Source of the DNA: an uncultured Chthonomonadaceae bacterium
GTDB taxonomy: Bacteria; Armatimonadota; Chthonomonadetes; Chthonomonadales; Chthonomonadaceae
Length of the DNA stretch: 64,000 nucleotides
Direction of reading: 5' to 3'
NCBI GenBank assembly: GCA_963817895.1
Contig: CAWFQB010000005.1
Location: forward strand, 576,001 to 640,000
Below the pieces are notes generated by a model. That model did no database searches. It was not told the origin of the DNA and saw only the letters and a program-made list of their open reading frames with translations. The translations under genes and the position numbers were made by a program. Every line of letters begins with the position of its first letter. Within the stretch, counting starts at the first letter, position 1. Positions 21,183 to 64,000 of the stretch are shown here, piece by piece.

Positions 21183-21472
21183 CACACTCCCAAAACCGGA
21201 GCAGAAAAAGCCCTCCTGCCCAATGGTGGACAGCCAGGGCTTTATTGTTAAGACCCCGCCTGATTCGACAGGAACTTTCGATTATTGCGAGTTTCCCCGG
21301 AAGCGGGAGGGGGTGGCGCTTCGGCTTACCTGATTTTTTTATAAACCTGCGTATTTTCTCATAATCTACGCAAAAGTGACAGTTTGGCATGAATCTTGCA
21401 CTAATCATTAAGTGGTAGTTTGCTGACGGACCACACTGCTTTCGCTCTATTTTCATGAAGGAGACTCTCTTT

Positions 21473-22192
21473 ATGCCAATGCCGCCACTTTTCCGTATGG
21501 CTCTGCGTCTTGCCTGTCTTGGCTTCCTGCTGCCGACAACCGCGCAGGCGCAAAACTTAGTCCAGGACGGTGATTTCGAACTCGCGAACCCTGGTGTCAC
21601 GACCTTTAACACCTCCTACTTCGGGCCGACAGGGCAGGCTCCGATGTTCGACGCCTTCTGGACAGTTCCGGCAGGAACCGTCGCCATTGATACGGCGCGC
21701 GATTATGTCTATGCCGGGAACAAGAGCCTGTGGCTCAACTCCGATGATCCCATGACTTCCCCCACCAACACCCTTTCGCAGACACTTCTTACCACGCCGG
21801 GACAAAGCTACCTGCTGACGTTCTACGCCGACAGCAGCTTTACCCCCAACGCTCTCGGCAGTGGCCCGCATCCGCTGACTGTCACCTTCGACGGCAACAT
21901 CGTGAGCGGCAGCGCGATTGACGTGCCGGAAAACGGCTATCCCAACAGCGGGCCGGGTTCTAACGCAGCTTTGTTCACCTTGTATTCTTTCCTGGTCACC
22001 ACCAATTCAAGTCTGACCGACCTGACCTTTTCCGCGCAGGGAAGCGTGTTGTTCAATCCGGGCAACACCCTCGAACTCGACAACATCAGCGTCACTCCTG
22101 CCGCCGTTCCCGAACCCGGCAGCATCGCGCTTTTCGTTGGTATGGGCATTACGGGAACAGTGTTCCTGCGCCGCCACAAGAGGTCTGTCTGA
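21473..22192 (+). CDS. PEP-CTERM sorting-domain protein (beta-sandwich, DUF642-like)
   Basis: Signal peptide, NLVQDGDFE, LSQTL.T.PGQSYLLTF, LDNISV, VPEPGS-TM-RRHKR tail. Confidence 0.88.
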   Translation: MPMPPLFRMALRLACLGFLLPTTAQAQNLVQDGDFELANPGVTTFNTSYFGPTGQAPMFDAFWTVPAGTVAIDTARDYVYAGNKSLWLNSDDPMTSPTNTLSQTLLTTPGQSYLLTFYADSSFTPNALGSGPHPLTVTFDGNIVSGSAIDVPENGYPNSGPGSNAALFTLYSFLVTTNSSLTDLTFSAQGSVLFNPGNTLELDNISVTPAAVPEPGSIALFVGMGITGTVFLRRHKRSV

Positions 22193-22340
22193 ACCGGGAT
22201 TTACCCGATTAACGGATTAACAGGATTCGGGACAGGCGGATTTCGCTGTTTTGAATCCTGTTTTTCTTGTGTGGAGGAAGAGCAGGGCGTTTGAGAGTCA
22301 ATCCTGCTCATCCTTTAATCCTGTAAATTTTGGTTCAAGA
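22191..22340. repeat. Inverted pair of 9-nt-periodic arrays
   Basis: gaaccgggatttacccgattaacggattaacaggatt ... aatcctgctcatcctttaatcctgtaaattttggttc. Confidence 0.65.
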
Positions 22341-22373
22341 CAAGAGGGATGAGGTGCCAGAAGAAAATCCTGA

Positions 22374-22478
22374 TCATACATTGTTGGGATGAACGGCGGT
22401 AATGCGGGGATAGCGAGCAAAATCCGTGACGTTGAGCGTAAGAAGCAACGAAATATTCGAGGCGGCCAGGTACGCCAT
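22374..22478 (-). pseudogene. Internally deleted VapC/PIN toxin remnant (34 codons)
   Basis: MAYLAASNISLLLTLNVTDFARYPRITAVHPNNV: PIN start fused to PIN end; TGATG-coupled to the antitoxin. Confidence 0.7.
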
Positions 22479-22729
22479 CAGTCATGGTCTCCATAAATAC
22501 CGGCGCGGGTTGTGGCATCGTGAGAGAGTACGGGAAGCCCTTCAGACTCTTCTTCCAGAGTATCCAGCGTTGCTTCCCATTCTTCCTGAGACAATTTTTC
22601 CGGCGCGGGAACCGCGACCATCTGTTCAATCAAATTTTGCAGGAAATCGGCAACAGGCTTGCCCTGAGAAGCGGCGCGGGCATGTACAGCGGCTTCTACT
22701 TCGGGGCGCAGGTCTAAGGTGACAGTCAT
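22478..22729 (-). CDS. Antitoxin-like protein
   Basis: MTVTLDLRPEVEAAVHARAASQG...LSHDATTRAGIYGDHD; RBS GAGGAG. Confidence 0.75.
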   Translation of the reverse strand: MTVTLDLRPEVEAAVHARAASQGKPVADFLQNLIEQMVAVPAPEKLSQEEWEATLDTLEEESEGLPVLSHDATTRAGIYGDHD

Positions 22730-22920
22730 AGTTTTCTCCTCGTGCTTTGCCTGTAATTCAAGGTACACGGCACATTCGAGACGCTCCTGCCGTGTACAGG
22801 CTTATTATACAGTATGACCAAAACGTGGTGAAATATTTTGTCGGTTGACAGAAACAACCGCAGACGAAAAGCAACAGGGCAGAACCTTCTCTACATATCG
22901 AAGGTTCTGCCCTGCTGCTT

Positions 22921-23334
22921 TCAAATAGTAGTGTGGTACAGACGTTCCAATTCGGTGACAATCTGCTGCGAGAGGCGGATGACTTCGGGCAGGCCGGTTG
23001 TGTCGGGGGCGGTGACGTTGGACACGATTTGAAAGTAGGGCTGCCATTGGGCGCGGAGGGTTTGTAGACGTTTTTGGACGCCGTATTCAACGCCTTCGCG
23101 GTAGGTTTCATCGAGTGAAGTGTATTGCGGCAGGGGCGGCAGAGCAAATGCAAACACTTCCAGATCGTCCAACTCTTCCACGTCTACAAGCAGACTCTCT
23201 GATAGCCGCTTGCGAAATGTGCCGTTGTGGTCCAGATGCCCGCCAAGCCGCGTCAACACGCCGCCCCGCGCATTGGTCTGCCCGACATAAACGACGTGGT
23301 TGCGTTTGGAACACAATATGTAGATGTAGGCCAT
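22921..23334 (-). CDS. GIY-YIG nuclease-domain protein (putative effector)
   Basis: YIY-x9-YVG-Q-T, then RLGGH, conserved E (REGVE) and N (IVSN); alternative start 23388. Confidence 0.72.
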   Translation of the reverse strand: MAYIYILCSKRNHVVYVGQTNARGGVLTRLGGHLDHNGTFRKRLSESLLVDVEELDDLEVFAFALPPLPQYTSLDETYREGVEYGVQKRLQTLRAQWQPYFQIVSNVTAPDTTGLPEVIRLSQQIVTELERLYHTTI

Positions 23335-23398
23335 ACCCCGTCCGAGGCAGGTACGGCCTAACCTGAAGCGCAGTGTACCCGACAGCATGGCTCTTCAC

Positions 23399-25168
23399 CT
23401 AATCGTCATTGGGAATTTTGTCGCCGACGTCTTTCGCCACTTTAGCCAGCATTTCGGACGCTACGCGGCGATACTCCTGCAAAATGGCTTCAATGTCCTT
23501 GCGGGGATATTTCATGGTCTTCTGCACGTAAACCTCGGCGGCGGCAAGCTGCAAGAGCATCAGGTCGAACACGATGCGCAGGGCGGCGTTGTCAGTGTTG
23601 TCCTGATAGATGGTTTTGGCGAAACGGTGAATGAAGTTGATGCGGACGCAGTTTTTCTTATCAGCGTCATAGTAGGGTTCCCACAGCGCGTTATCCATGA
23701 TGTTGTGAACGGGCATGATGCGGTCACTGGTTCCGGCCTGTTCGCCAACAATGATCTTCTGTATCACTTCGGGCGGTATTTCATCCTCGGTAAAATCTAT
23801 TTCCGGCTGTTGTATTTCCAACAGCAGTTTGGCTTCAGCCTCGAAACGCTCTTCCTGCTCAACGATAATCTCTTGTTGGCGGGCCTGCTTCTCCTGAAAT
23901 GCCTCCTCTGTGTCCGGCTCACCGGGCAATTCTTCGGGAATTTCTGACTGCTGCGCAAGGAGGTTGGCGGTGCTGCCGGGATTCATGCCCGCCCGCCGTT
24001 TTATCTCTTCGCCTGCGTGTTTCCACGCTTTTTTGCTCTTGCGCTTGGCGTCAGTAGAAAAGTCGTCAAGAGCTTTGTAGGCTTCATCGGAAAGATTGAT
24101 GTGCGATTTTTTGACATCTATGTTCAGCACGTCATCCGCGCTGGAATCGATAAAAACGCGCCCGCGAAATGAGTAGAAATCGTTGTCCTGCGGGATAATG
24201 GGGCCGTTGACGCTTGGGAAGCCTTCTGCCCATGAAATCAGGCGTTTGTTACGGTAGACATAGTAGCCATAGTTACCTGCGCCAATGCGGTACAGGTCAC
24301 GTATGCGGGACTGTTCGCCGGTTCCATCGGCTTCAAACGTGGGCGGGTGCGGCAATTGGGTGACTTCCACAACAGCCCTGACGCCCCGTTCGCCGTCGAG
24401 TACCAGTTCCTGCGGTTTTTCGATCCAGCGGGTTTCGCGTCCGTCCCAAATGTTTTCGTCCAGATTGCCGTTTTTGTCGGCTTCCCCGGTAAACAGCACG
24501 TCGAAGGGAGAACACTTTTTGTCTTCGATGTCAATAATCAAGCCATCATCGCGCATGAAGTAGTAGTACACAATACCAACGCGCTGCTGAAGTTCCACAA
24601 CGGTAGAGCGGATACTGGGGTGATTTCCTTTACGAACGTCGGTGACTCGGACAATGGTTCCATGCCCCTCGACGAGATACTCGCCAATCAGAGCGTTATC
24701 TTCATCGGAGAGTTCCACGCGGTCAGCCCCGTAGACGCCGCGCTCTCGGATTTCGGGAAGGGATACTTTGTACTTATGCCATTGCCCGTTACCGTTGCTG
24801 GAAAGCAATTCGAGGGTTTCGCCCTGTGAAAAGGAAGCGGCTTTTAGGCCAAGACCGAATTTGGAGAGAGTGTTAGGCGGGTAGTTGGCATCCGTAGCCC
24901 CAAGCGTGAGCGCATTGATAATGCCTTCCTCATCCATGCCCCTGCCATTGTCAATGATGAGATAGGATTTAACATTGTTCTTCTTGGTATCAGCAACATT
25001 TTTCTCTGGAACAATTTTAACAGATATGCACTTTGCGCCAGCTACAACAGAATTGTCTATAATATCACAGATGGCTGCGTGTGGCGTATAACCAATTTTG
25101 CTAAGTCCATCGCAAATTCTACCCGCGTCCATCTTCAGACTGACAAATGCCATTCTACTTTCCTCCAC
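23399..25168 (-). CDS. MORC/MutL-like GHKL ATPase (HATPase_c_3 plus S5 fold)
   Basis: GY..HAAICDIIDNS, IIDNGRGM, LSKFGLGLKAASFSQ, HGTIV; S5 GYYVYRNKRLI, NIDVKKS. Confidence 0.9.
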   Translation of the reverse strand: MEESRMAFVSLKMDAGRICDGLSKIGYTPHAAICDIIDNSVVAGAKCISVKIVPEKNVADTKKNNVKSYLIIDNGRGMDEEGIINALTLGATDANYPPNTLSKFGLGLKAASFSQGETLELLSSNGNGQWHKYKVSLPEIRERGVYGADRVELSDEDNALIGEYLVEGHGTIVRVTDVRKGNHPSIRSTVVELQQRVGIVYYYFMRDDGLIIDIEDKKCSPFDVLFTGEADKNGNLDENIWDGRETRWIEKPQELVLDGERGVRAVVEVTQLPHPPTFEADGTGEQSRIRDLYRIGAGNYGYYVYRNKRLISWAEGFPSVNGPIIPQDNDFYSFRGRVFIDSSADDVLNIDVKKSHINLSDEAYKALDDFSTDAKRKSKKAWKHAGEEIKRRAGMNPGSTANLLAQQSEIPEELPGEPDTEEAFQEKQARQQEIIVEQEERFEAEAKLLLEIQQPEIDFTEDEIPPEVIQKIIVGEQAGTSDRIMPVHNIMDNALWEPYYDADKKNCVRINFIHRFAKTIYQDNTDNAALRIVFDLMLLQLAAAEVYVQKTMKYPRKDIEAILQEYRRVASEMLAKVAKDVGDKIPNDD

Positions 25169-25170
25169 AG

Positions 25171-26013
25171 TTATAAATGACAGATCAAGCAGGCTTGATC
25201 GCTGTCTTCATCATCAAGGACTTTCTCGAAAATTTCGGTCAGGCGTTTGGGTTTTTTGTTGGCCTGCTCGTAGGCCATCGCCTCTTCGTGCATAGCGCGG
25301 ATTTTGGCGACCCGTTCGGGCTGTTCCAGTTCGCTCAGGCTTTCGTTTTGCGCCCATGTGTAACGCCGGACTACGCCCGTGAGCGGATCGGTTTCTTCCT
25401 TTTCAAACGTTTTGGCTTTTTCGTACAGGTCGGGATGTTCGCGTTTCAGGTTTGCCCACTCCACTTTGCGCTGAAAAAAGCAGAAGTAGCAGCCGGAACG
25501 GGTACGCCACTTATAATAGTCCGGCAGGCCCAAACTCGCGTCTTCCAGAATCTGGTACACGCCCTCTTTGTCAATGCCCGCGTCCTTGAACGGGTATACG
25601 GCCTGTATGTTTTCCTTGTGGGAAATGTAGCCGTCCCGGTTCTCATCGGCGCGGATAGCCACATACGACATAATTCGTGCGCCCGGAAACTCCGAATCAA
25701 GCCAGCGTTCAAACGGCTCGATTTTCAGTTTCGCGGTACACCAGCGCATACGCGGCGAGGGCAGGTAATTGTTATAGATTTTCAGGTAGTGGCTGAAAGG
25801 CCGATCCGGGTTCAGGCGCGTAATCGGCTTGCCCAAAAAATTTTCCAGTTTCCCTAAATAATCGTAGGTTTCCTCTAGCTCTTCGCCTGTATCGCAAAAG
25901 TAGTAGTGCATGTCGGGTACGCGGTCGCGCATATACACGGCAAGCGCGGTGCTGTCCTTACCGCCCGATATGCCCAATACGTTCACCACATTTTGCCCGG
26001 TTTGCTCAGTCAT
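25171..26013 (-). CDS. sspD: PAPS-reductase-family protein (SspD-like sulfur-insertion enzyme)
   Basis: PP-loop SGGKDS, RWCT..LK, RSGCYFCFFQ, C-terminal CLIC; follows DUF4007 and ATPase genes. Confidence 0.82.
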   Translation of the reverse strand: MTEQTGQNVVNVLGISGGKDSTALAVYMRDRVPDMHYYFCDTGEELEETYDYLGKLENFLGKPITRLNPDRPFSHYLKIYNNYLPSPRMRWCTAKLKIEPFERWLDSEFPGARIMSYVAIRADENRDGYISHKENIQAVYPFKDAGIDKEGVYQILEDASLGLPDYYKWRTRSGCYFCFFQRKVEWANLKREHPDLYEKAKTFEKEETDPLTGVVRRYTWAQNESLSELEQPERVAKIRAMHEEAMAYEQANKKPKRLTEIFEKVLDDEDSDQACLICHL

Positions 26014-29000
26014 GGGGTTGACCTTTCAGCAGGTTTTGAACCAGTTGGCTGACGACTGCCAATCTTACCTCTTCAGGTTCGCCTCGTAATGTATATTCGA
26101 AATCATTCAGCAGTTTTCGACACAGTGAGTCTATTTTTTCGGTGTCCATTTTCTGCACAAACACGATACGCGATTCTTCTGCGCCCGTGTCGGTTGTTAC
26201 GGCAAGCCGCAGCCCCGTTTGCTCATCGCTATTCGACCTGCGCTGTCGTTCAAACTGAATCACTTCCGCATGTTGAAACGCGGAAATTAATGGTGGCAGA
26301 CGATTTACAAAGCGCTCTTCTTCTGTATCGCTCCAAACATCTGGCGGGCGCGTGGAGATTCCTCCGGCAACCAATTCCAGCCACTCTTTGCGTTTGTACG
26401 CTTCATCCCCGGCACGCACAACGAACGATTTCAAGCGCGGCTCGGTAACGTGCGACAGAATAGAAGCGGAACGGGCGCGTAACTCCTCCCAATCCTTTGT
26501 GCCGAATCCGTTTGTCAGGGCGCGTTCAATGCGCGACAACAGCGCATCGTAAGCCCCCATCACTTCGCTTAGTGATGTATTCCAGTCCATGAAGAACTGC
26601 TCTACGTTTTCCGGGTCTTCCGCCTGCGCCGTAAACGCCCTTGCGCCGAGCAAACGCGGCAGAAACGAGAACAACAATTTTTCCGGCTCTTTGCCTTCCC
26701 GCAGTAAATCGCGTACGGCTTTTGCGGACGGTTCCAGTTTGCGCGTGTGTAGCGTGTAGTCAGGCAATTTGTTTACAACGCGGTATAATTGCCTTACAAC
26801 GTTGACCAGTGTTATTTCGTCACCCGACTTCAATAATCCTCTTGCAAAACGATCTAAAACGGTTTGTCTTTCTCCCGCAATACGACAGCCTTGCAGCGTG
26901 AAATCTTCCCGGCGCTTAATCAACCGCTCGAAAGTCGCCGCGTCTAGTTCGACTACGAACCGGCCCTCTTCGTAAACAACAACCTCATTGGTATTGTACA
27001 GCAACACGGCACACAGTAGAACCGGAATAACTTGTTCTGCTAGTCCAAATGGACGTGCCTGCAAAATGTCGTACAACTGCGTTAAAGGCCGCGCTTCCAA
27101 TGCGCCCTCAAACAGAAAATCATCAATGGCTTTCCACACCTGTACCAGTGCCGGATCGTTCTCATGGTAGGGTGGGAAAATGCCCCATGTCTCGCCGTTT
27201 ACACTGCGGTGTATGCCCGTGCTTTCCAGAATGGAAACGTACATACTCATTTCCGGTGGGAACCCGTCAATGCCCAACTGTTTCTGCTCATAACGCAAAA
27301 TCATCGCTTCAATCAGAATGCGACGGGCGGCGGCAGACGTAGAGGAAATCTGACGACGGTTAATCAATTCGTTCAGCAGTTTCGGAGTTTGCGGGTAGGC
27401 TGTATCGCAGGCAGTAGAAACTAATTCCACAAGTTGCCGATTGGAGGAAAGCGGCGCGACTTCGCCGTTGTAATACCAAACGCTGCTGTCCGCCATATCC
27501 CTCTGCGGGTGCATCAGGCGGTTCCATTCCGATTTGAACGCTTCTGTTGCATCAAGTAGGCGTTCCGACACCTCGCGTTGCGCCACTCTGTCTTTTTCCA
27601 GTTCCGGTGTATCCTTCTGAACCATTTCCAGACTGCTAACAGCAACCGCCGTTTCGCGCAGGGCATCGCTTTCCACGTTGATACCAATAATTATGTCAGG
27701 ATGTTCTAAAGACAAACGTTGCGCCGTTGCTTCCGCTTCCCGAAAGTCTGCCTGATGCATAGCAAGACACAACAGCATCAGCCCGTCAGCGTCAGCATGT
27801 CCGACCCTGACTTCGGCCTCGATCTCATCAGCGCGGCAATAGCGAACGTCGAAAAAGCGCAATGTGCCTGTCAGATACGAGTGACGCCGCGCCACAACGG
27901 GCAGCATCGTTTCCAGTCGACGCGCTGTGGCAACCACATCCGTACCCTGAAAAAAGTGCGGTTTGGCGTCACGCAAGCGGGCGTCAATGTCTACGTCGCT
28001 GCCCTCATATAAACGGTAGGCTTTTTTGAAACGCCGATACGTAATCAAGGTTGCCGTTTCCAGCGCGTCAATCGCTTCCGAAATCTGCGTGGCGGTAATG
28101 CCCGGTTCGATCAGGGCAAATTCAAGCATCTTTTTCGATGGCAAAATTCGCGTCTGTTCGCCCAAAATATGCAGCAATCCGATTGTTTTCACCAGCCTGC
28201 TTTGCAGCGACGATGTGTTGCTCAGTCGGTACAACGCCTCCTGCGTTTCGCTCCAGAGTTTCGCGGTTGCATGGGAATACAGCGCGGAACCGAGCGTTGC
28301 CACCACATAATCATACAGGTGGTCTACCCGGATTTGCGGCAGGTTCTTCCCATCCAAAACATGCGCGTCCAAAAACTCCTTGAAACCAAACGGCTCATCG
28401 GACGCCAGAAACGAAAACAGCGACCGCTCATTCTGCCCGAACCGTTGAAACAGCGTCGGCATAATCAGAAACGTCAGAGGATGCATCGGGTACACCTGTC
28501 GCAGCATCTCGCCAAAATCGGCGGACGGCAGCGACTTCGGTACAATGTGCAACTGCGTACAGGTTGCAAGGTTCTGTTCAGCAACGTTTTCTAACAGATT
28601 TTTGGTTTCGGGTGTCGGCTGCGGCTGAATGGCCTGCGCCAGCAATCGCAAAATCGCTTCCGGTCCATCCCCGAACGGAATGTCCGCGAAACGCCCCTGT
28701 ACCTTATGCCACTCGTTGCGCTGCGGCCCGCTCAACCGATAAGCGTACTCCTCAAACGCCTGATGCAAAATGGTGACAAACACAATCGCGTTGTCGCCGC
28801 TGCGTGACGCGCACTCTGCCAGTTCTTGAAGTACCTGCGTGTCGCTCTGCTCCGTGTGCAGGGCGGCGTACTCCAAAAACTTGCCCATTTCATCTACCAC
28901 TACCAGCAGCCCCGCACACCCGGCAACATGGGCGCGAACATTTTTCGACGCGATTTCAAACAGGCGGACGACATCTTTAGCGCGGGGTTCCGAACTGCTG

Positions 29001-29527
29001 CCACTTCCAGACGCGCTGACGCTTGCCAACTCCTCGCGAATAGCCTGTATCACCACCTCTTTTGCATCCGCAGGCAGATAGTCCAGCGATTGAATCAAGC
29101 CGCGTACCAGAGCAAGCGCAAGCGGTTCCCGCGTCCCCGTCACCAAAACCGGCCAAAATCCCGCCTCTTTTTTGGCAAACAGCGTCGTGTTCAAAGCCGC
29201 CGACTGCGGCCGCGCTTCCCGGCGCAAATTGGCATCCCCAATCTTGCCGACCGCCAGCGTTTTCGCCGCGAACAACGCGAACGCCGATTTTCCCGTGCCA
29301 TACGCGCCCGTCAAACTGTACGCCCGCGCGTTCGGGTTGCGAATCCCCTCCGCGATCCGTTCCAGAGCCGACAGCGCGGCGGGAGTCGGCACATACCCTT
29401 GCAGCGCGTCCACGCTGTAAAAGTCGCGCTCCAAATTCACGGAACGCAGAAACCGTTGGCGCACTCCGACCAACTCTGTCAGGCGCAAACCCGGTTCTGC
29501 CTGTTTCTCAGTCAGTATAGTAGGCAT
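26006..29527 (-). CDS. sspC: Large P-loop ATPase (SspC-like / BrxC-related)
   Basis: RSVNLERD, Walker A GAYGTGKS, Walker B VVVDEMGKFLE, EW.KVQGRF, YPMHP, FGQNERSLFSFL, NELINR. Confidence 0.82.
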   Translation of the reverse strand: MPTILTEKQAEPGLRLTELVGVRQRFLRSVNLERDFYSVDALQGYVPTPAALSALERIAEGIRNPNARAYSLTGAYGTGKSAFALFAAKTLAVGKIGDANLRREARPQSAALNTTLFAKKEAGFWPVLVTGTREPLALALVRGLIQSLDYLPADAKEVVIQAIREELASVSASGSGSSSEPRAKDVVRLFEIASKNVRAHVAGCAGLLVVVDEMGKFLEYAALHTEQSDTQVLQELAECASRSGDNAIVFVTILHQAFEEYAYRLSGPQRNEWHKVQGRFADIPFGDGPEAILRLLAQAIQPQPTPETKNLLENVAEQNLATCTQLHIVPKSLPSADFGEMLRQVYPMHPLTFLIMPTLFQRFGQNERSLFSFLASDEPFGFKEFLDAHVLDGKNLPQIRVDHLYDYVVATLGSALYSHATAKLWSETQEALYRLSNTSSLQSRLVKTIGLLHILGEQTRILPSKKMLEFALIEPGITATQISEAIDALETATLITYRRFKKAYRLYEGSDVDIDARLRDAKPHFFQGTDVVATARRLETMLPVVARRHSYLTGTLRFFDVRYCRADEIEAEVRVGHADADGLMLLCLAMHQADFREAEATAQRLSLEHPDIIIGINVESDALRETAVAVSSLEMVQKDTPELEKDRVAQREVSERLLDATEAFKSEWNRLMHPQRDMADSSVWYYNGEVAPLSSNRQLVELVSTACDTAYPQTPKLLNELINRRQISSTSAAARRILIEAMILRYEQKQLGIDGFPPEMSMYVSILESTGIHRSVNGETWGIFPPYHENDPALVQVWKAIDDFLFEGALEARPLTQLYDILQARPFGLAEQVIPVLLCAVLLYNTNEVVVYEEGRFVVELDAATFERLIKRREDFTLQGCRIAGERQTVLDRFARGLLKSGDEITLVNVVRQLYRVVNKLPDYTLHTRKLEPSAKAVRDLLREGKEPEKLLFSFLPRLLGARAFTAQAEDPENVEQFFMDWNTSLSEVMGAYDALLSRIERALTNGFGTKDWEELRARSASILSHVTEPRLKSFVVRAGDEAYKRKEWLELVAGGISTRPPDVWSDTEEERFVNRLPPLISAFQHAEVIQFERQRRSNSDEQTGLRLAVTTDTGAEESRIVFVQKMDTEKIDSLCRKLLNDFEYTLRGEPEEVRLAVVSQLVQNLLKGQPHD

Positions 29528-30440
29528 TCAAAACCTCTTCTTTGCCAATGTCGCCATGCCGCGCCACCTGCCGGATCATCACCGTATCGCTGAACGTCAA
29601 GCGCCCCTGTGTCAATTCCGCCAGCGTATCCAGATACCCCAACACCGTATCATCATCCAATCGGAAAATGCGCCCCGGACTCCCCTCGCCGTACACGATC
29701 TCGCGCAGGCTCAAGGTTTCCTGATTGGAATGTCGCTCCTCCCAACAGTGCAGCAGCGCGTACACGAAAATCGCCGGGGGCAAACTCTCCTTCGGCTCCG
29801 TGTTGAAACGGTAGCGATCCCCCACGCTCAACAGCAAGCCCAGGTTCGTCAGCGGACAATCCAGCGACTCTTCCGCCGTTGACGCAGGCCCGCGCCGCCC
29901 GGTCACATACGTTCGCAAAAAGCAGTTCACATCGTTTTTCAGCGTAGTATCGGAAACCTGCCCCCACGTCCGTTCCGCCGCCACCCGCTTCAAACCCTCC
30001 ATCAAACTCTCGCGGGTAAACTCCGGTTCGCGCATCAGATTGAACGCCCAGTACCACGTCGTCGCCCGCCGCGCATTGGTAGCCAGATGCCAGTGCAGCA
30101 GCCAGAGCGTCCCCTCATCTTCCAGATACTTGTCGTACCCCGGTTCCAGAAACAACGACTTTCCCAACTCGGACGGCAGCAATGGCTTCGTTCTGTTGGA
30201 AGGTAACGCCCCCTCTTCCAGAACTTGCGTCGCCAGACACCAGTGCCGAATCGAGCGCACCATGTTTTTGCCCACGCCAAGCGTCACTATCGCATCATCG
30301 CGCCCGAAAATTTCCGGCTGCCGGGTAATGCCGTCCAATCCCTTTTTCAGCCACGCATAGCGAAAAGGAAACGTCTCGTGACCCGAAAACGACGGATGCA
30401 GGGAAAGCGAAGGCTGGGCCGTCAAACCCATCGAAGACAT
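29508..30440 (-). CDS. sspB: DUF4007 protein (SspB-like)
   Basis: FSGHETFPFRYAWLKKG, LGVGKNMVRSIRHW, D.YLED..TLWLLHW.L, LDCPL..LGL, SPGRIFRL. Confidence 0.88.
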   Translation of the reverse strand: MSSMGLTAQPSLSLHPSFSGHETFPFRYAWLKKGLDGITRQPEIFGRDDAIVTLGVGKNMVRSIRHWCLATQVLEEGALPSNRTKPLLPSELGKSLFLEPGYDKYLEDEGTLWLLHWHLATNARRATTWYWAFNLMREPEFTRESLMEGLKRVAAERTWGQVSDTTLKNDVNCFLRTYVTGRRGPASTAEESLDCPLTNLGLLLSVGDRYRFNTEPKESLPPAIFVYALLHCWEERHSNQETLSLREIVYGEGSPGRIFRLDDDTVLGYLDTLAELTQGRLTFSDTVMIRQVARHGDIGKEEVLNAYYTD

Positions 30441-30530
30441 AGAGGAATATCCTTAGTACGGCGCAATGCCGAAAATTTAGCGGTAACTGCGGGCGCATCC
30501 AAGCGCAAAAACGCGCCCGGATACACCCGC

Positions 30531-30560
30531 ATTATGACGTATAACCCGGATTTCCGTCAA
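30531..30560 (-). promoter_or_regulatory. Putative sigma70 promoter of the ssp-like operon
   Basis: Minus strand TTGACG-N18-CATAAT about 90 nt upstream of the DUF4007 start. Confidence 0.5.
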
Positions 30561-30597
30561 GCCAATTTGCGTAGAAATGCCAGCCCCGCGCATCTAA

Positions 30598-30680
30598 AAG
30601 CCTGTCTCAATAGGTTCCCCTTCTCCCAGGCTTTTTTGGGAGAAGGGGTTAGGGGTTGAGGGCTAATTGGAAAAGGCTGC
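30598..30680. mobile_element. Degenerate MITE carrying the CCCTTCTCCC/GGGAGAAGGG palindrome
   Basis: taa-aagcctgtctcaatagg...ctaattggaaaaggctgc-taa; interior nearly identical to 58757-58823. Confidence 0.6.
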
Positions 30681-31138
30681 TAAATTGAACACTCTGTCCC
30701 CGGCTTCTACCCTCATCTGTCATAAGCCACCAAAGTTCAAAATTTTTGCAAAACTTTCGCGAAAACTTCTTGAGGATACTTCTAAAAAAGTGGACGAATG
30801 TTAATATACGGGGTCTGCCAAATAGAATACTGTCCCCAAGTAACAAGGGAAGGAGGTGCAAAAAGATGCCAATTCACATCCGACAGCCTTAACCATTCGG
30901 AGGTCACGACGCCTCTTCTTACAACCTGACACAACGAGGCCGAGTGCTGGAAGCGCTGCATTGCCAATATTTCGACGACGCCTCTACATATTTCTCTCCC
31001 CATTTAGAGACATTTGCCCTGTACCGTTTCCTGTTTTCGCGTCCCTGCAAGCCGTATCGGGTATAATCAATCCCGAACCGTTGGCGCGAGGTGGCAATTC
31101 TGCCGCGTTCCGCCCCAACCACTTTGCCGCGAAAGAAG

Positions 31139-32578
<1,440 letters not shown>

Positions 32579-32678
32579 AAAACATTAGCCGCGAATGAAC
32601 GCGAATGAACGCGAATTATTAAGGATGAAGCCTTGCGCGCGGATTTCCGCGCAGGGTGCAATGAACTCCCACTCCGTT

Positions 32679-60271: not shown

Positions 60272-61615
60272 CTAATTAGACTTATCTCTTAGAACTTGCT
60301 GTATGCGTCGCGGTAGAGTTGGTGCTAACAAAGCACGCAGTTGTATAATGGTCAAACGTGCTGTCGAGCTATTTACAATCTCCATTACACTAGTTTCTCG
60401 GTCATCTGGCAATATTCCACTTTTAAATATCTTCTCTATTAGAGAACGAACCGCCCACCGGTCGCTCTCATAGGCTAAACGCCAGAGTTCTCTCAAACAA
60501 TTTATACGTAAGTCTGAGGACGAAACAGTCCGATAAACACGGTCAAGTACACGTCCGAAATCGTTGGCCCCCTCGAAAGGCCATCGTGTTGTGCCTAAGC
60601 ATTCCTCCACACGCTCAATGTAAACTTTCACAAATGCTCCAATAGAATTTCCAACAACCGAATAGTACGCTTGTACGTTCTCATCGTTGTTTAGTATACG
60701 TGCTATCGGCTCCAAATAATCATGGTATACGTGAAATGTGTACTCTCCTGCTATCGCAAACCGATGAAAGTCGTGCCAATCTATCGGGGTTGAGCCATCA
60801 GCATAAGCGCTTACACGTTCGCCCACAGTCAGTTCATCACTTCTACTAAGCATTTCTTTGAGAGAGTTGTAAGCATCAGTAAATGCTTCTATATCTGCGT
60901 ACCGATCCTCTGGCAGATTTTCCGTTGCCTTGATGATTACTGGGCCAAAGTCACAAATTTGGTATGTACGTGGACTGCGCCCCGTGCAAATATAGTTAAG
61001 TACCTTTCCAAGCGAGAATATTTCACTTCGTACAGTTGCTTGCGTTAGGCTCTCCATCTGCTCTGGCGCGGTAAAAGAGAGTTGACCGTAGTTGCCCTGT
61101 GCCGTCTTAGTATGAGCAGACAGGGACTCCCAATTCTTACCCAAACCAAAGTCCGCGACTTTCACTTGGAATGAGCTATCGGCGAGCAAAAACAAGAGTA
61201 TGTTTTTAGGCCCAAGGTCGCGGTGCAAGACAGAATTCTGATGAGCATGGGTGATAGCAGCGAGAACAGCATCAAATAAAGCTATTCGGCTCTGAAGAGA
61301 AATCTTGGAGTTGTTCCGTTGAAGGTAATCTTCAAGGTTGGAGGATGCATAAGGCATTACATACCAATTGCAGCCATCGTCCAAGCCCTTATCTAAGACA
61401 GTCACGATATTCTGATGCGGAGCTAGTCTTTCTAGCAATTCAACTTCTCGGCGGAACCGGAGGACGTAATTCGCGTTATTTTCATGCTCTATTTTAAGTT
61501 GCTTGAAAGCAACTATTTCTCCAGTAATGCTATCCTCACATCCGGTCACATCAGCAAAATAGCCCGAGCGAGGAGAATATTTTTGTTTATATCGCTTGTT
61601 GGCTTGCATTACCAC
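60272..61615 (-). CDS. Hanks-type Ser/Thr protein kinase, soluble, with a helical C-terminal domain (putative defence)
   Basis: VAFKQL, RFRREV, HQNIV, HRDLGPKNIL, VADFGLGK, APEQ, IFSLG; lower GC than flanks. Confidence 0.92.
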   Translation of the reverse strand: MVMQANKRYKQKYSPRSGYFADVTGCEDSITGEIVAFKQLKIEHENNANYVLRFRREVELLERLAPHQNIVTVLDKGLDDGCNWYVMPYASSNLEDYLQRNNSKISLQSRIALFDAVLAAITHAHQNSVLHRDLGPKNILLFLLADSSFQVKVADFGLGKNWESLSAHTKTAQGNYGQLSFTAPEQMESLTQATVRSEIFSLGKVLNYICTGRSPRTYQICDFGPVIIKATENLPEDRYADIEAFTDAYNSLKEMLSRSDELTVGERVSAYADGSTPIDWHDFHRFAIAGEYTFHVYHDYLEPIARILNNDENVQAYYSVVGNSIGAFVKVYIERVEECLGTTRWPFEGANDFGRVLDRVYRTVSSSDLRINCLRELWRLAYESDRWAVRSLIEKIFKSGILPDDRETSVMEIVNSSTARLTIIQLRALLAPTLPRRIQQVLRDKSN

Positions 61616-61805
61616 TGGAACCTTGTCCTTTCATTATCCCTGAGAACGTGTGTACTCATCACTGGCTTCCGGTTCGCACTCCCCTTCGGCCTGCCTCTGT
61701 TGACGCAGGAGGTACGCGGAACAATTATTCTTATTGTTCAAACTCTGTCCAGATTGAAGGCCATTCTTGTTGTAACTTCTTGCACCTGCCGGAGTTATAA
61801 AAACG

Positions 61806-62660
61806 CTATTCGTTTGCAAATGGGTCGGACTCGTCTAGGTCATCATCAACTGGCGGCGGAGCGGGTTTACGTCCGCCTGTACTTGGCTTAGACCATTTCA
61901 AACTAGGCGAATCCAATTCATATATAATATCTCGCGGCTGGTTGAAATCAATAACTACCCCGACTTTCCCGGACTGTGTAGCTTCAAACCTAACTACCTT
62001 GCCCTCACCGTAACGTTGTGTGAGAACGGTGTTACCTACGAAGAAACGGCCAAAGTCTACTTCGCTTTCAGGAGTACGAACCGATGCAGGGTTGCGCACC
62101 AATATCAAACGACTAATTTCCAACACTTCTTCAATCATCTCTCGTTCAGAACGTATTGTGTTCCTTGGTACTACTGCATGAGATTGAATTGTTTGAGAGA
62201 CACGCACCTCTAAATCCGGCCACCACTTTTCAAAAGTGGTATCCAGAACGTTTTTTGACAGTCCTCGCTCTCCTAGTTCCCGGTTGAGCATGGAGACAAG
62301 TTTGTACATCTCATCGTGGTTGAAGGGGGCTGCTTGGAATTGTTGCAAAGGGCCGGTCAGGTCAGTTGTTGCAATTCCAAATAACAGTGGTACAACCTTT
62401 GAGGTGTCTATCTTCTTTGAAATTGCACCACCTTCAAAAAGCAACCAAGGGGATTGCAGGTTGTTGGATGTCAAGAACATCAACCCGTTCTCGGATTCTT
62501 CTAAATTTTTAGCGATGTCCGTAGACCATCGTGAGCCTTTTTCGACATCATCAGGAGAAAAAAACGGTTTAACCGCTTGAAGAACACTCGGCAGCCAATC
62601 ACTAAATATTTGAGCAATGCTTTTGCTTGGCTCACCTGACCAGCTAAGAAAGACGTGCAT
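61806..62660 (-). CDS. TIR-domain protein with a small C-terminal beta domain and acidic tail
   Basis: VFLSWSG..S, DVEKGSRW, SPWLLFEGGAI (catalytic Glu position), GPLQQFQ, FEKWWP; tail DDDLDESDPFANE. Confidence 0.88.
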   Translation of the reverse strand: MHVFLSWSGEPSKSIAQIFSDWLPSVLQAVKPFFSPDDVEKGSRWSTDIAKNLEESENGLMFLTSNNLQSPWLLFEGGAISKKIDTSKVVPLLFGIATTDLTGPLQQFQAAPFNHDEMYKLVSMLNRELGERGLSKNVLDTTFEKWWPDLEVRVSQTIQSHAVVPRNTIRSEREMIEEVLEISRLILVRNPASVRTPESEVDFGRFFVGNTVLTQRYGEGKVVRFEATQSGKVGVVIDFNQPRDIIYELDSPSLKWSKPSTGGRKPAPPPVDDDLDESDPFANE

Positions 62661-62888
62661 ATCAAGATTACTCCGGTAGAGAAACGACATTCCTGTCGCC
62701 TCGGATATACTGCTAGACTACTGACGCAGGTACAGGGAGCAGTGGCGAGTGGCAAGTGGCGAGGACTTGCGTCTGTTCTCTTGCTCCTGCGCTCTGTTCG
62801 CCCTGTTGCCGTCCGCCTACGCTCCCGGCTTCATGTCCTGCCTCAATTCGGGCGGTTGAGGACTATTGTGGCTTCGAAACAGCAGCTT

Positions 62889-64000
62889 TCAACCACTTAT
62901 AGCATCCGATATAATAAATGGGGAGTGAATTAATTTTAGATTGTGTACCACCCAAGCGATTAATTTTATTTTGTAGCCTAATTCCTCGGAAGTTACTCTA
63001 CTTGAAGGGTCGTGAATTAAGATATTTCTTAGTTTGTTCAATTCCGAAATTTTTTCTGCGAGGCTTCTAGGAATACTTCCATCTATCACTAACATATCTA
63101 CCAATGTCCTCACAGTCATAGCATGAGGTTCTTTGCTTAAAGACAGACCTTTTTTGCTTGCTAATAGTAACAACTCTGTGTGCAATTCCTTCCAATTATC
63201 TACGAACCTTCCTAATAAGAAACTGGAATTGGCTGCTGCATCTTCTGCTACCAAGTCACGCTCATCCTCTGCTACGCTTACCTGTGGCAGTTTACTTAGA
63301 GCTTCTTCCAATTTCGGCTTAACTTCACCAATTAGTAGATCACACTGTTCAAGGTCGGATTTTGTGAAGCCAGAGTTATGGGCAATCATGCACCGATAAT
63401 CGTATAATTTATTCCATCGTGTGTTCAGCCAACCATCCTCACAGGCGACTAGACGCGAAAAATAGCGTTCCCAATTAGATTGAGGAACAATTGCCTTAAT
63501 TTCTTCAAGTTCCTCAATTGTATTCGCTTTCTTTAGTTTTGCATATATATCCTGATCTGTACTCTTAGAGTAGGGTCTGAGAAGAAAACGAGTAAGATCA
63601 ATGAAATCAATGGAGTACAAAATGGAGGCGCGTTCCTGACGTTGTTTGTTAGCCGCTTCTTTCACCTCTTGTGGAGTTGCTTCTGTAGCCCATTCTTTTC
63701 CTACAGTGATAAGCAGGAAGTTGGCGATAAGTTTCCGCATGAGATTTTCAATCTCATATATTTTTGTATATGCCTGTTTAGAGTAGTATAAAGCAATATC
63801 ATCCCACAACACTTCCAACTGCCCCTTTGCCATCCCCATAACAAGACCGCGAACTGCTTTCAACAGCAAGGTAAGTGCCTCAACCGCTTCTGAGACCACA
63901 CTTTCATCTGGATTTATTTTAAACTTTAATTGAAAGTAGCGTTGGTCTTTGCCACTGATCTCACCAGTGCCAATATGATAGCCGCACTGGAAATTGTTGT
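62889..64000 (-). CDS. Dual HEPN-motif protein, 5' end outside the window
   Basis: IENLMRKLI, DFIDL, SNWERYFS, RCMIAH (RxxxxH) and a second RNILIH; frame open to the window edge. Confidence 0.8.
   Translation of the reverse strand, partial: NNFQCGYHIGTGEISGKDQRYFQLKFKINPDESVVSEAVEALTLLLKAVRGLVMGMAKGQLEVLWDDIALYYSKQAYTKIYEIENLMRKLIANFLLITVGKEWATEATPQEVKEAANKQRQERASILYSIDFIDLTRFLLRPYSKSTDQDIYAKLKKANTIEELEEIKAIVPQSNWERYFSRLVACEDGWLNTRWNKLYDYRCMIAHNSGFTKSDLEQCDLLIGEVKPKLEEALSKLPQVSVAEDERDLVAEDAAANSSFLLGRFVDNWKELHTELLLLASKKGLSLSKEPHAMTVRTLVDMLVIDGSIPRSLAEKISELNKLRNILIHDPSSRVTSEELGYKIKLIAWVVHNLKLIHSPFIISDAISG

Follow-up and report, generated by a model that had tools for sequence, protein, structure and literature searches.

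Defence based on phosphorothioate (PT) modification of DNA is already known, and among the described systems closest to the locus analysed here are those that share the SspB/C/D writer. In SspABCD-SspE (PMC9646914, PMC13251355) an effector encoded just downstream of sspD joins a nucleoside triphosphatase (NTPase) to a DNA nickase, and SspABCD-SspFGH (PMC8092258) has an alternative multi-gene sspBCD partner of patchy distribution. SspE and SspFGH also coexist, in which case their effects add up (PMC8092258). In a census of 2678 sspBCD loci, sspE accompanied 7.4% and sspFGH 7.3%, 2211 (84%) carried neither, and further restriction partners were predicted (Wang et al. 2021, PMC8092258). Here we describe a stretch of 64,000 nucleotides (nt; ‘the window’ below) from an uncultured Chthonomonadaceae bacterium (GCA_963817895.1, contig CAWFQB010000005.1, positions 576,001 to 640,000), in which sspBCD is followed directly by genes for a MORC-like GHKL ATPase and a small GIY-YIG nuclease-family protein. 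This pair is inherited as a unit, almost exclusively inside PT-modification clusters of several kinds, and what is new is not PT-based defence as such but an unnamed partner module within it.

The five genes are minus-strand open reading frames (ORFs) that are co-oriented, packed end to end over positions 22921-30440 and free of internal stops in the ORF listing and translations, and the cassette is single-copy in its genome. Its features, with a promoter-like site last, are as follows:

29508..30440, minus strand: sspB, 310 amino acids (aa); DUF4007 protein, the DNA-binding/nicking subunit of the Ssp writer
26006..29527, minus strand: sspC, 1173 aa; large P-loop ATPase related to BrxC/Orc-Cdc6
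25171..26013, minus strand: sspD, 280 aa; ATP pyrophosphatase of the PAPS-reductase fold
23399..25168, minus strand: MORC-like GHKL+S5 ATPase, 589 aa; long helical region and uncharacterised conserved C-terminal domain (~480-589)
22921..23388, minus strand: small stand-alone GIY-YIG nuclease-family protein, 155 aa
30560-30531, minus strand: promoter-like hexamer pair TTGACG-18-CATAAT; weak evidence only (10/12 consensus matches)

The scan from which the following counts derive took one genome per species, used two ATPase peptide patterns only and was followed by tblastn with the five proteins of the window; it yielded 58 loci, each of which was judged with 10-kb flanks. The GIY-YIG gene lay directly downstream of the ATPase gene in 52 of the 58, SspD was found within 10 kb in 49, all five genes were present in 41, and the exact order and strand of the window were kept in 38, a recurrence in other genomes that places the five-gene arrangement far beyond chance. 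Going by their titles, the records come from Chloroflexi, cyanobacteria, Bacteroidota, Bacillota, Acidobacteria, Alpha- and Gammaproteobacteria, Rhodothermales, Capsulimonadaceae and Poribacteria. The original prediction, made from the letters of the window, would have been undermined by a pair that never recurs beside sspBCD; recurrence across many lineages is what was found. Distance matrices of the ATPase and the nuclease correlated at r = 0.97 over 42 cassettes, and each correlated with that of SspD at ~0.9, values that shared descent inflates but that fit transmission as one cassette.

Exceptions to the common order were also seen. The sspBCD genes were convergent in L001 and L007, and L032 was cut inside sspC. 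Nine loci had no SspD in their flanks; seven of them contain or adjoin further PT genes, and two (L040 and L042) are truncated by contig ends. The order in L009 was PbeA-PbeC-x-MzaA-like-ATPase-nuclease, together with an SspD-like gene; L041 had PbeA/PbeC-like genes and an HNH protein upstream and a PAPS-reductase-like gene at the locus edge; and in L053 the cassette was flanked by PbeA-PbeC upstream and by DndA-DndD-DndC downstream. The pair stood directly behind restriction genes in L013 (SspG-SspH-ATPase-nuclease) and in L038 (DndG-DndH-ATPase-nuclease, with DndC at 6e-127 elsewhere in the same genome). A UvrD-like helicase lay upstream in L010, followed by SspA/DndA and SspH/SspG, with SspD 0.7 kb past the locus, while in the case of L057 SspD (5e-114) was found ~14 kb off, apparently on the same contig. 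With L040 and L042, which begin at contig ends, left out of the PT-context count, PT-system genes were present in 56/56 assessable loci or genomes. The idea that the pair is specifically an Ssp partner did not survive these comparisons: because it also adjoins Dnd and Pbe genes, and sits directly behind SspGH or DndGH, we regard it as a general PT-linked add-on module. Plasmid sequences gave no tblastn match at E ≤ 1e-30, and the 39 loci returned from IMG/VR viral contigs included no orthologue: all were remote GHKL relatives at 23-42% identity, aligned for the most part in the N-terminal domain.

Within the cassette, sspB and sspC overlap by 20 nt and sspC and sspD by 8 nt, whereas gaps of 2 nt and 10 nt separate sspD from the ATPase gene and the latter from the nuclease gene; the ORF listing and translations thus reproduced the five intact, co-oriented genes and the spacings first reported. 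The true start of the ATPase is probably the ATG at 25153, which would widen the gap after sspD to 17 nt, because a 100% identical database copy (P0006, 584 aa) and the relatives likewise begin at Met6. For the nuclease the long start (ATG at 23388, giving the 10-nt gap) is supported by an N-terminal extension, the 18-20 residues ahead of the ‘YIYI’ strand, that is conserved among relatives. The promoter-like site does exist as predicted, ~90 nt 5' of sspB, but such sites number 6 in this region against 5.6 ± 2.2 in shuffled sequence, and it therefore carries no weight.

That the core is a true SspBCD module, as originally claimed, is evident from very strong PADLOC matches. SspB covers 288/288 profile positions of Pfam DUF4007 (E = 2.4e-91) and reaches E = 8.4e-98 with the PADLOC SspB model. 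SspC scores 1024 bits (E = 0), compared with 614 bits for the top BrxC model, and has a weak Pfam AAA_16 match and the Walker A motif GAYGTGKS. SspD scores E = 3.9e-117 against 1.9e-10 for BrxP and 3e-5 for DndC, matches Pfam PAPS_reduct above the cut-off (E = 4e-8) and contains the SGGKDS loop. No cysteine desulfurase (SspA/IscS) was found adjoining the cassette in the window; tblastn detected two DndA-like genes that share 45% and 44% identity with a DndA of L053, on contigs C1 and C12; they may be housekeeping enzymes and could serve as SspA. The SspD of Bacteroidota cassettes (e.g. L011:8853-9990, G401:C22:262884-263963) is a ~370-400-aa ORF in which an insertion after about position 157 splits the SspD-model match in two.

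The ATPase matches Pfam HATPase_c_3 (E = 7e-22), and its structural model (predicted local distance difference test score, pLDDT, 90.1) consists of an N-terminal GHKL domain with a beta-rich S5-like domain (to ~340), long helices (361-453) and a C-terminal domain (484-584) of modelled beta-beta-beta-alpha-alpha-alpha topology. Best Foldseek matches were the ATPase modules of MORC2 with DNA, SMCHD1, MORC4 and MORC3 (E = 3e-15 to 8e-14 over 420-470 columns), in agreement with a profile-to-PDB sequence search (SMCHD1 at 5e-8, MORC4 at 1e-6), so that the MORC-like character first proposed from sequence is borne out at the level of fold. Residues D38, N39, D73, G75, G77, G105, G107, K109 and K354 are invariant in an alignment of 64 sequences; the Bergerat-fold motifs (motif I Asn, DxGxG, GxGxK) and the S5/transducer domain with its conserved Lys are those of the MORC-like GHKL+S5 superfamily. 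Motif I reads D35-I-I-D38-N39 (window 25054-25066, residues 35-38), with Asp35 kept in at least 90% of sequences; MutL and MORC proteins carry Glu at this position, as does a second GHKL family encountered near sspBCD (GHKL2, described below).

Four residues of the C-terminal domain are invariant (E497, D501, H514 and E545). No relative of this domain was detected by sequence in Pfam or PDB, and a protein-atlas search with residues 470-589 returned unnamed clusters only. We conjecture that it is the best candidate for a family-specific function, such as PT/DNA reading or nuclease docking. A likeness to the sulfur-binding domain (SBD) of ScoMcrA, suggested by the strings ‘EPY’ and ‘HRF’, was dropped for want of Pfam or PDB sequence support.

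The family is large and uniform (~585 aa), and the best 120 relatives listed, at 47-85% identity, are named just ‘ATP-binding protein’ or ‘hypothetical’. Among PADLOC and NCBIfam models the ATPase matches MzaB alone, with a PADLOC match of E = 4.8e-14 confined to the N-terminal GHKL domain and an NCBIfam score of 81.9 bits against a cut-off of 850. The protein is consequently no MzaB equivalog, and the absence of Mza partners noted at the outset was confirmed, no MzaA, MzaC, MzaD or MzaE being found in the window. Tiamat and VcSduA (paraMORC3-Shedu) were rejected as identities, given no PADLOC match to Tiamat or Shedu and no Pfam match to DUF3684 or DUF4263.

The nuclease scores 25.2 bits with Pfam GIY-YIG (E = 2e-5; cut-off 22.6), a family that 18 of 24 aligned relatives also match; none of the 24 matches another family. 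Residues Y34, G36, R47, H51, R97 and E101 are invariant and Y23 is kept in 90%. By reference to I-TevI and UvrC, such residues include the catalytic Arg and the metal-binding Glu; the protein retains the GIY/YIG strands, the Arg and the Glu and thereby the catalytic residues of the superfamily. Its structural model is of high pLDDT (92.9). The family is small and discrete, a search of 1.84 billion proteins returning 221 representatives at E ≤ 0.001, and the window's nuclease has no match in the PADLOC defence library. Complex prediction with the ATPase scored 0.00, 0.49 and 0.00, where 0.32 was the threshold, and so speaks neither for nor against contact.

Set against the known systems, the locus shares its writer with SspABCD-SspE but differs in the effector: SspE is a single protein with a DUF262 NTPase and a DUF1524/HNH nickase, whereas here two proteins, GHKL/MORC and GIY-YIG, occupy the place, with no sequence relation to it. 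SspF (a Walker A protein), SspG and SspH (FtsK-like) are likewise unrelated to the pair, which occurs in addition to SspGH in L005, L010 and L013. BREX type 4 (brxP-brxC-pglZ-brxL; PMC12839542, PMC12914056) shares DUF4007, a BrxC/SspC-type ATPase and a PAPS-reductase and makes PT, but its census records PglZ in every one of 457 taxa and BrxL in 96%, whereas neither is among the PADLOC matches of the 63 window ORFs, and the window scores far better with Ssp than with Brx models. IscS-DndBCDE-DndI (PMC11662687) resembles our locus in combining a PT writer with a nuclease other than DndFGH, although DndI is of DUF262/HNH type.

The ATPase side of the architecture has its own precedent. MORC/paraMORC ATPases (Iyer, Abhiman and Aravind 2008, PMC2292703) combine GHKL+S5 with a family-specific C-terminal extension beside a nuclease in modification-linked operons, as here, and have been proposed to use ATP to clamp or loop DNA and thereby link recognition to cleavage. 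The operons of that paper use methyltransferases, superfamily 2 (SF2) helicases and restriction endonuclease (REase), Vsr or HNH nucleases, and the words phosphorothio-, Dnd, PAPS and GIY do not occur in it; the window family could not be assigned to any named paraMORC family. By analogy, the pair would follow MORC/paraMORC restriction-modification logic with sulfur replacing methyl. The Mza locus, for its part, shares only the weak MzaB resemblance.

URI/GIY-YIG enzymes are listed among Dnd-neighbourhood nucleases by Rakesh et al. 2024 (PMC10853773), a paper in which GHKL, MORC, MutL and HATPase are not mentioned. Across the passages covered for novelty (PMC8092258, PMC12914056, which analysed sspD neighbourhoods, PMC10853773, PMC12839542, PMC2292703 and PMC12137116), neither a GHKL/MORC ATPase nor this GIY-YIG family is described as a partner of Ssp or Dnd, though figures and supplements of PMC12914056 and PMC10853773 may depict the gene unnamed. 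The view that the architecture is undescribed is supported by full-text searches, in which no paper on the pair was found. No model dedicated to either partner exists in PADLOC 2.0 (2023), NCBIfam 20 (2026) or Pfam, and loci like this one would therefore score as lacking a known restriction partner.

Other candidate effectors were sought in the genome, which is 81% complete, and their absence is accordingly provisional. The best SspE model match was 28.8 bits, over ~100 N-terminal residues on DUF262 only; the four DUF262 proteins of the genome score as type IV/HEC-05/HEC-06/Orf5, i.e. as GmrSD/HEC-type. Two SspF models, the only ones tried, gave no match, and no tblastn match was obtained in the genome for SspG (query from L013), DndG/H, PbeA/C or DndC/D, while an SspH query matched just a 221-residue C-terminal stretch on contig C3. 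The partners noted as missing in the original prediction were likewise not found, as regards SspE, SspF and SspG in the genome and PglZ and BrxL in the window. The 59 window ORFs within 29 kb of the cassette gave no PADLOC matches; 3 of the 63 tested did match, all at 60272-63899.

The cassette itself is an accessory insertion, since no DNA matching positions 21200-30600 occurs in two genomes of the same genus, neither of which has SspD, and since its GC content is lower (51-53% over most of the cassette, 22001-28000, compared to 55-62% in neighbouring windows). In G261, the one near-complete genome of the same genus, its two flanks stand apart, and in G389 they fall on separate contigs, so that no clean insertion site can be drawn; the window contains no tRNA gene. 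No RNA runs were listed with the cassette, and one soil-metagenome DNA run contained a 0.13 share of the sampled words.

The best reading of these data is that the pair is a PT-coupled effector module that would restrict foreign DNA and is encoded behind the SspBCD writer operon, given its fixed position, its exclusive PT context across writers, its intact motifs, its patchy accessory spread and the lack of another effector here. We put the probability of this reading at roughly one half (0.52); if correct, the pair would join SspE and SspFGH as another class of partner. The SspBCD writer, served by a cysteine desulfurase whose gene lies elsewhere in the genome, would put sulfur on the host DNA backbone. 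A dimer of the ATPase would bind ATP, clamp DNA as MORC and MutL do and read the presence of PT, possibly by means of the conserved family-specific C-terminal domain; on unmarked DNA it would license the GIY-YIG protein to nick, halting phage or plasmid replication. What is read would be sulfur, the backbone or a generic DNA state and not a sequence motif, because the pair serves Ssp, Dnd and Pbe clusters that mark different motifs. A more specific version is tentative and carries clearly less confidence: the MORC-type clamp as a general, sequence-independent reader of backbone sulfur through its unique C-terminal domain, gating a GIY-YIG nickase and plugging into Ssp, Dnd and Pbe writers.

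Several observations weigh against an effector role. The pair coexists with known restriction modules (SspGH in L005, L010 and L013, DndGH in L038 and Pbe-like genes in ~12 loci), and in such loci it is unneeded as ‘the’ effector and could be an accessory, although SspE and SspFGH too are found together with additive effect (PMC8092258). It is also a minority partner. Prevalence was gauged in 401 genomes of the window's own phylum and in 401 Bacteroidota-centred genomes. SspD was present in 33 of the former, including the window's genome, and absent from the two same-genus genomes; the orthologous ATPase stood next to SspD in 2 of the 32 other SspD genomes, which are duplicates of two of the 58 loci and so add no extra evidence. 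In the Bacteroidota sample SspD was present in 17 genomes, with an ATPase orthologue in 1 of 16 besides the seed. The total of 3/48 makes the pair about as common among sampled SspD genomes as SspE or SspFGH in the 2021 census (~7% each). With Asp35 at the motif I position that is Glu in GHKL2, the ATPase may hydrolyse ATP slowly or may work as a switch. On the side of the nuclease, the best Foldseek rows were not significant (Slx1 at E = 0.3, I-TevI at E = 1.9), and for this reason its assignment depends on sequence motifs. No fusion of the two proteins was seen, the 150 of 221 GIY-YIG representatives listed spanning 65-324 aa and no ATPase relative exceeding 1032 aa. Finally, nothing identifies a PT-binding site, and restriction, PT sensing and contact between ATPase and nuclease are putative.

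The signal could also run in the opposite direction, as with SspE: host PT would stimulate the ATPase and so switch on nicking of incoming DNA, and defence would require PT. The antiphage activity of SspE depends on host PT (PMC9646914, PMC8092258), and just ~10-15% of consensus sites carry PT (PMC12914056), which argues against simple site-by-site protection. The near-obligate residence of the pair in PT clusters fits such a dependence as well. The sequence, however, gives no direction of signal, and the ATPase, which in PADLOC touches MzaB only, is no relative of the SspE NTPase of DUF262 type. On balance we consider this logic unlikely for the present pair.

A role in maintenance or repair, in which the ATPase, MutL-like, and the nickase, UvrC-like, would deal with nicks, stalled intermediates or oxidised PT sites left by the writer, is in our estimate rather improbable. 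GHKL ATPases do serve with nucleases in mismatch and very-short-patch repair (PMC2292703), SspD is the tightest neighbour of the pair, with SspD-ATPase adjacency kept even in Poribacteria loci whose sspB and sspC lie farther off, and coexistence with dedicated restriction modules would be natural for a repair function. Yet 45 of the 48 sampled SspD genomes do without the pair, which is therefore unneeded for modification; what it adjoins in L013 and L038 are restriction genes (SspH, DndH) and not the writer; and its patchy, cassette-like spread is typical of defence genes.

That the pair is a self-sufficient two-gene defence cassette, free of PT dependence and merely gathering with PT genes in islands, is very improbable: defence genes do cluster in islands, and the neighbours vary (a UvrD-like helicase, an HNH protein, an MzaA-like protein), but in 38/58 loci from many phyla the pair keeps one place and one direction immediately after sspD, a PT-type gene accompanies all 56 assessable cases, and no other defence gene lies within ~29 kb in the window, which is not island clustering.

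Other genes next to sspBCD came to light in the same samples. GHKL2 (~610-640 aa) shares only the N-terminal domain with the window ATPase, is unnamed and gives weak MzaB matches. In 11 of the 48 SspD genomes its gene is a few kb from that of SspD, on the downstream side of sspBCD; it was not found in the window itself. Its contexts include SF2 helicase-GHKL2-PLD nuclease, a DndB-like gene with GHKL2 and, in the window's closest relatives, a position directly after the GIY-YIG gene; examples are L065-L071 (L067:8168-12616; L066:4098-5945) and, near SspD, G463, G491 and G650. In L072 and L073 the neighbours of sspBCD are a second, diverged DUF4007 protein and then a 1458-1755-aa protein without Pfam or PADLOC match, and in L076 a small GIY_YIG_2-like protein, a DndB-like protein and an NB-ARC/TPR protein; L075 is likewise among the loci with other unexplained sspBCD neighbours.

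The surroundings of the cassette hold further features. Between it and the conserved flank, inside the stretch unmatched in the same genus, lie two ORFs without Pfam or PADLOC match (21455-22192, plus strand; 22315-22629, minus strand). Just upstream of the cassette, at 30599-31021, is a ~150-nt dispersed repeat with dozens of 76-90% copies in G389 and several in G261, which may mark a recombination or insertion hotspot. Two nearly fully overlapping 500-aa ORFs follow (31067-32569, minus strand; 31091-32578, plus strand), neither of which has a family match; the stretch from 31351 on is conserved in same-genus genomes, and one of the two is therefore probably real. A 31-nt intergenic element at ~32586-32616, between the long ORF ending at 32578 and a GHMP-kinase gene, has many 91-100% copies across G261 and looks like a repetitive extragenic palindromic (REP) element. 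The PADLOC matches at 60272-63899 fall on three minus-strand ORFs, which match a defence-type Ser/Thr kinase (Stk2/PD-T4-6), TIR-TM (E = 3.5e-70) and PDC-M34B, in a region of low GC (44-47%) that is probably a separate defence islet.

Most sspBCD operons (~84% in the 2021 census) lack a known restriction partner, and how or whether they defend their hosts is an open question to which the pair described here is relevant. The module offers a bacterial model for MORC ATPases that couple an epigenetic mark to an action on DNA, a coupling that is still open for the eukaryotic MORCs. That it accompanies Ssp and Dnd writers alike would suggest that backbone sulfur is recognised directly, and if the tentative reading of the clamp as a general sulfur reader is true, the pair would represent a third mechanistic class of PT immunity, and its ATPase the first MORC from bacteria for which an epigenetic ligand is defined.

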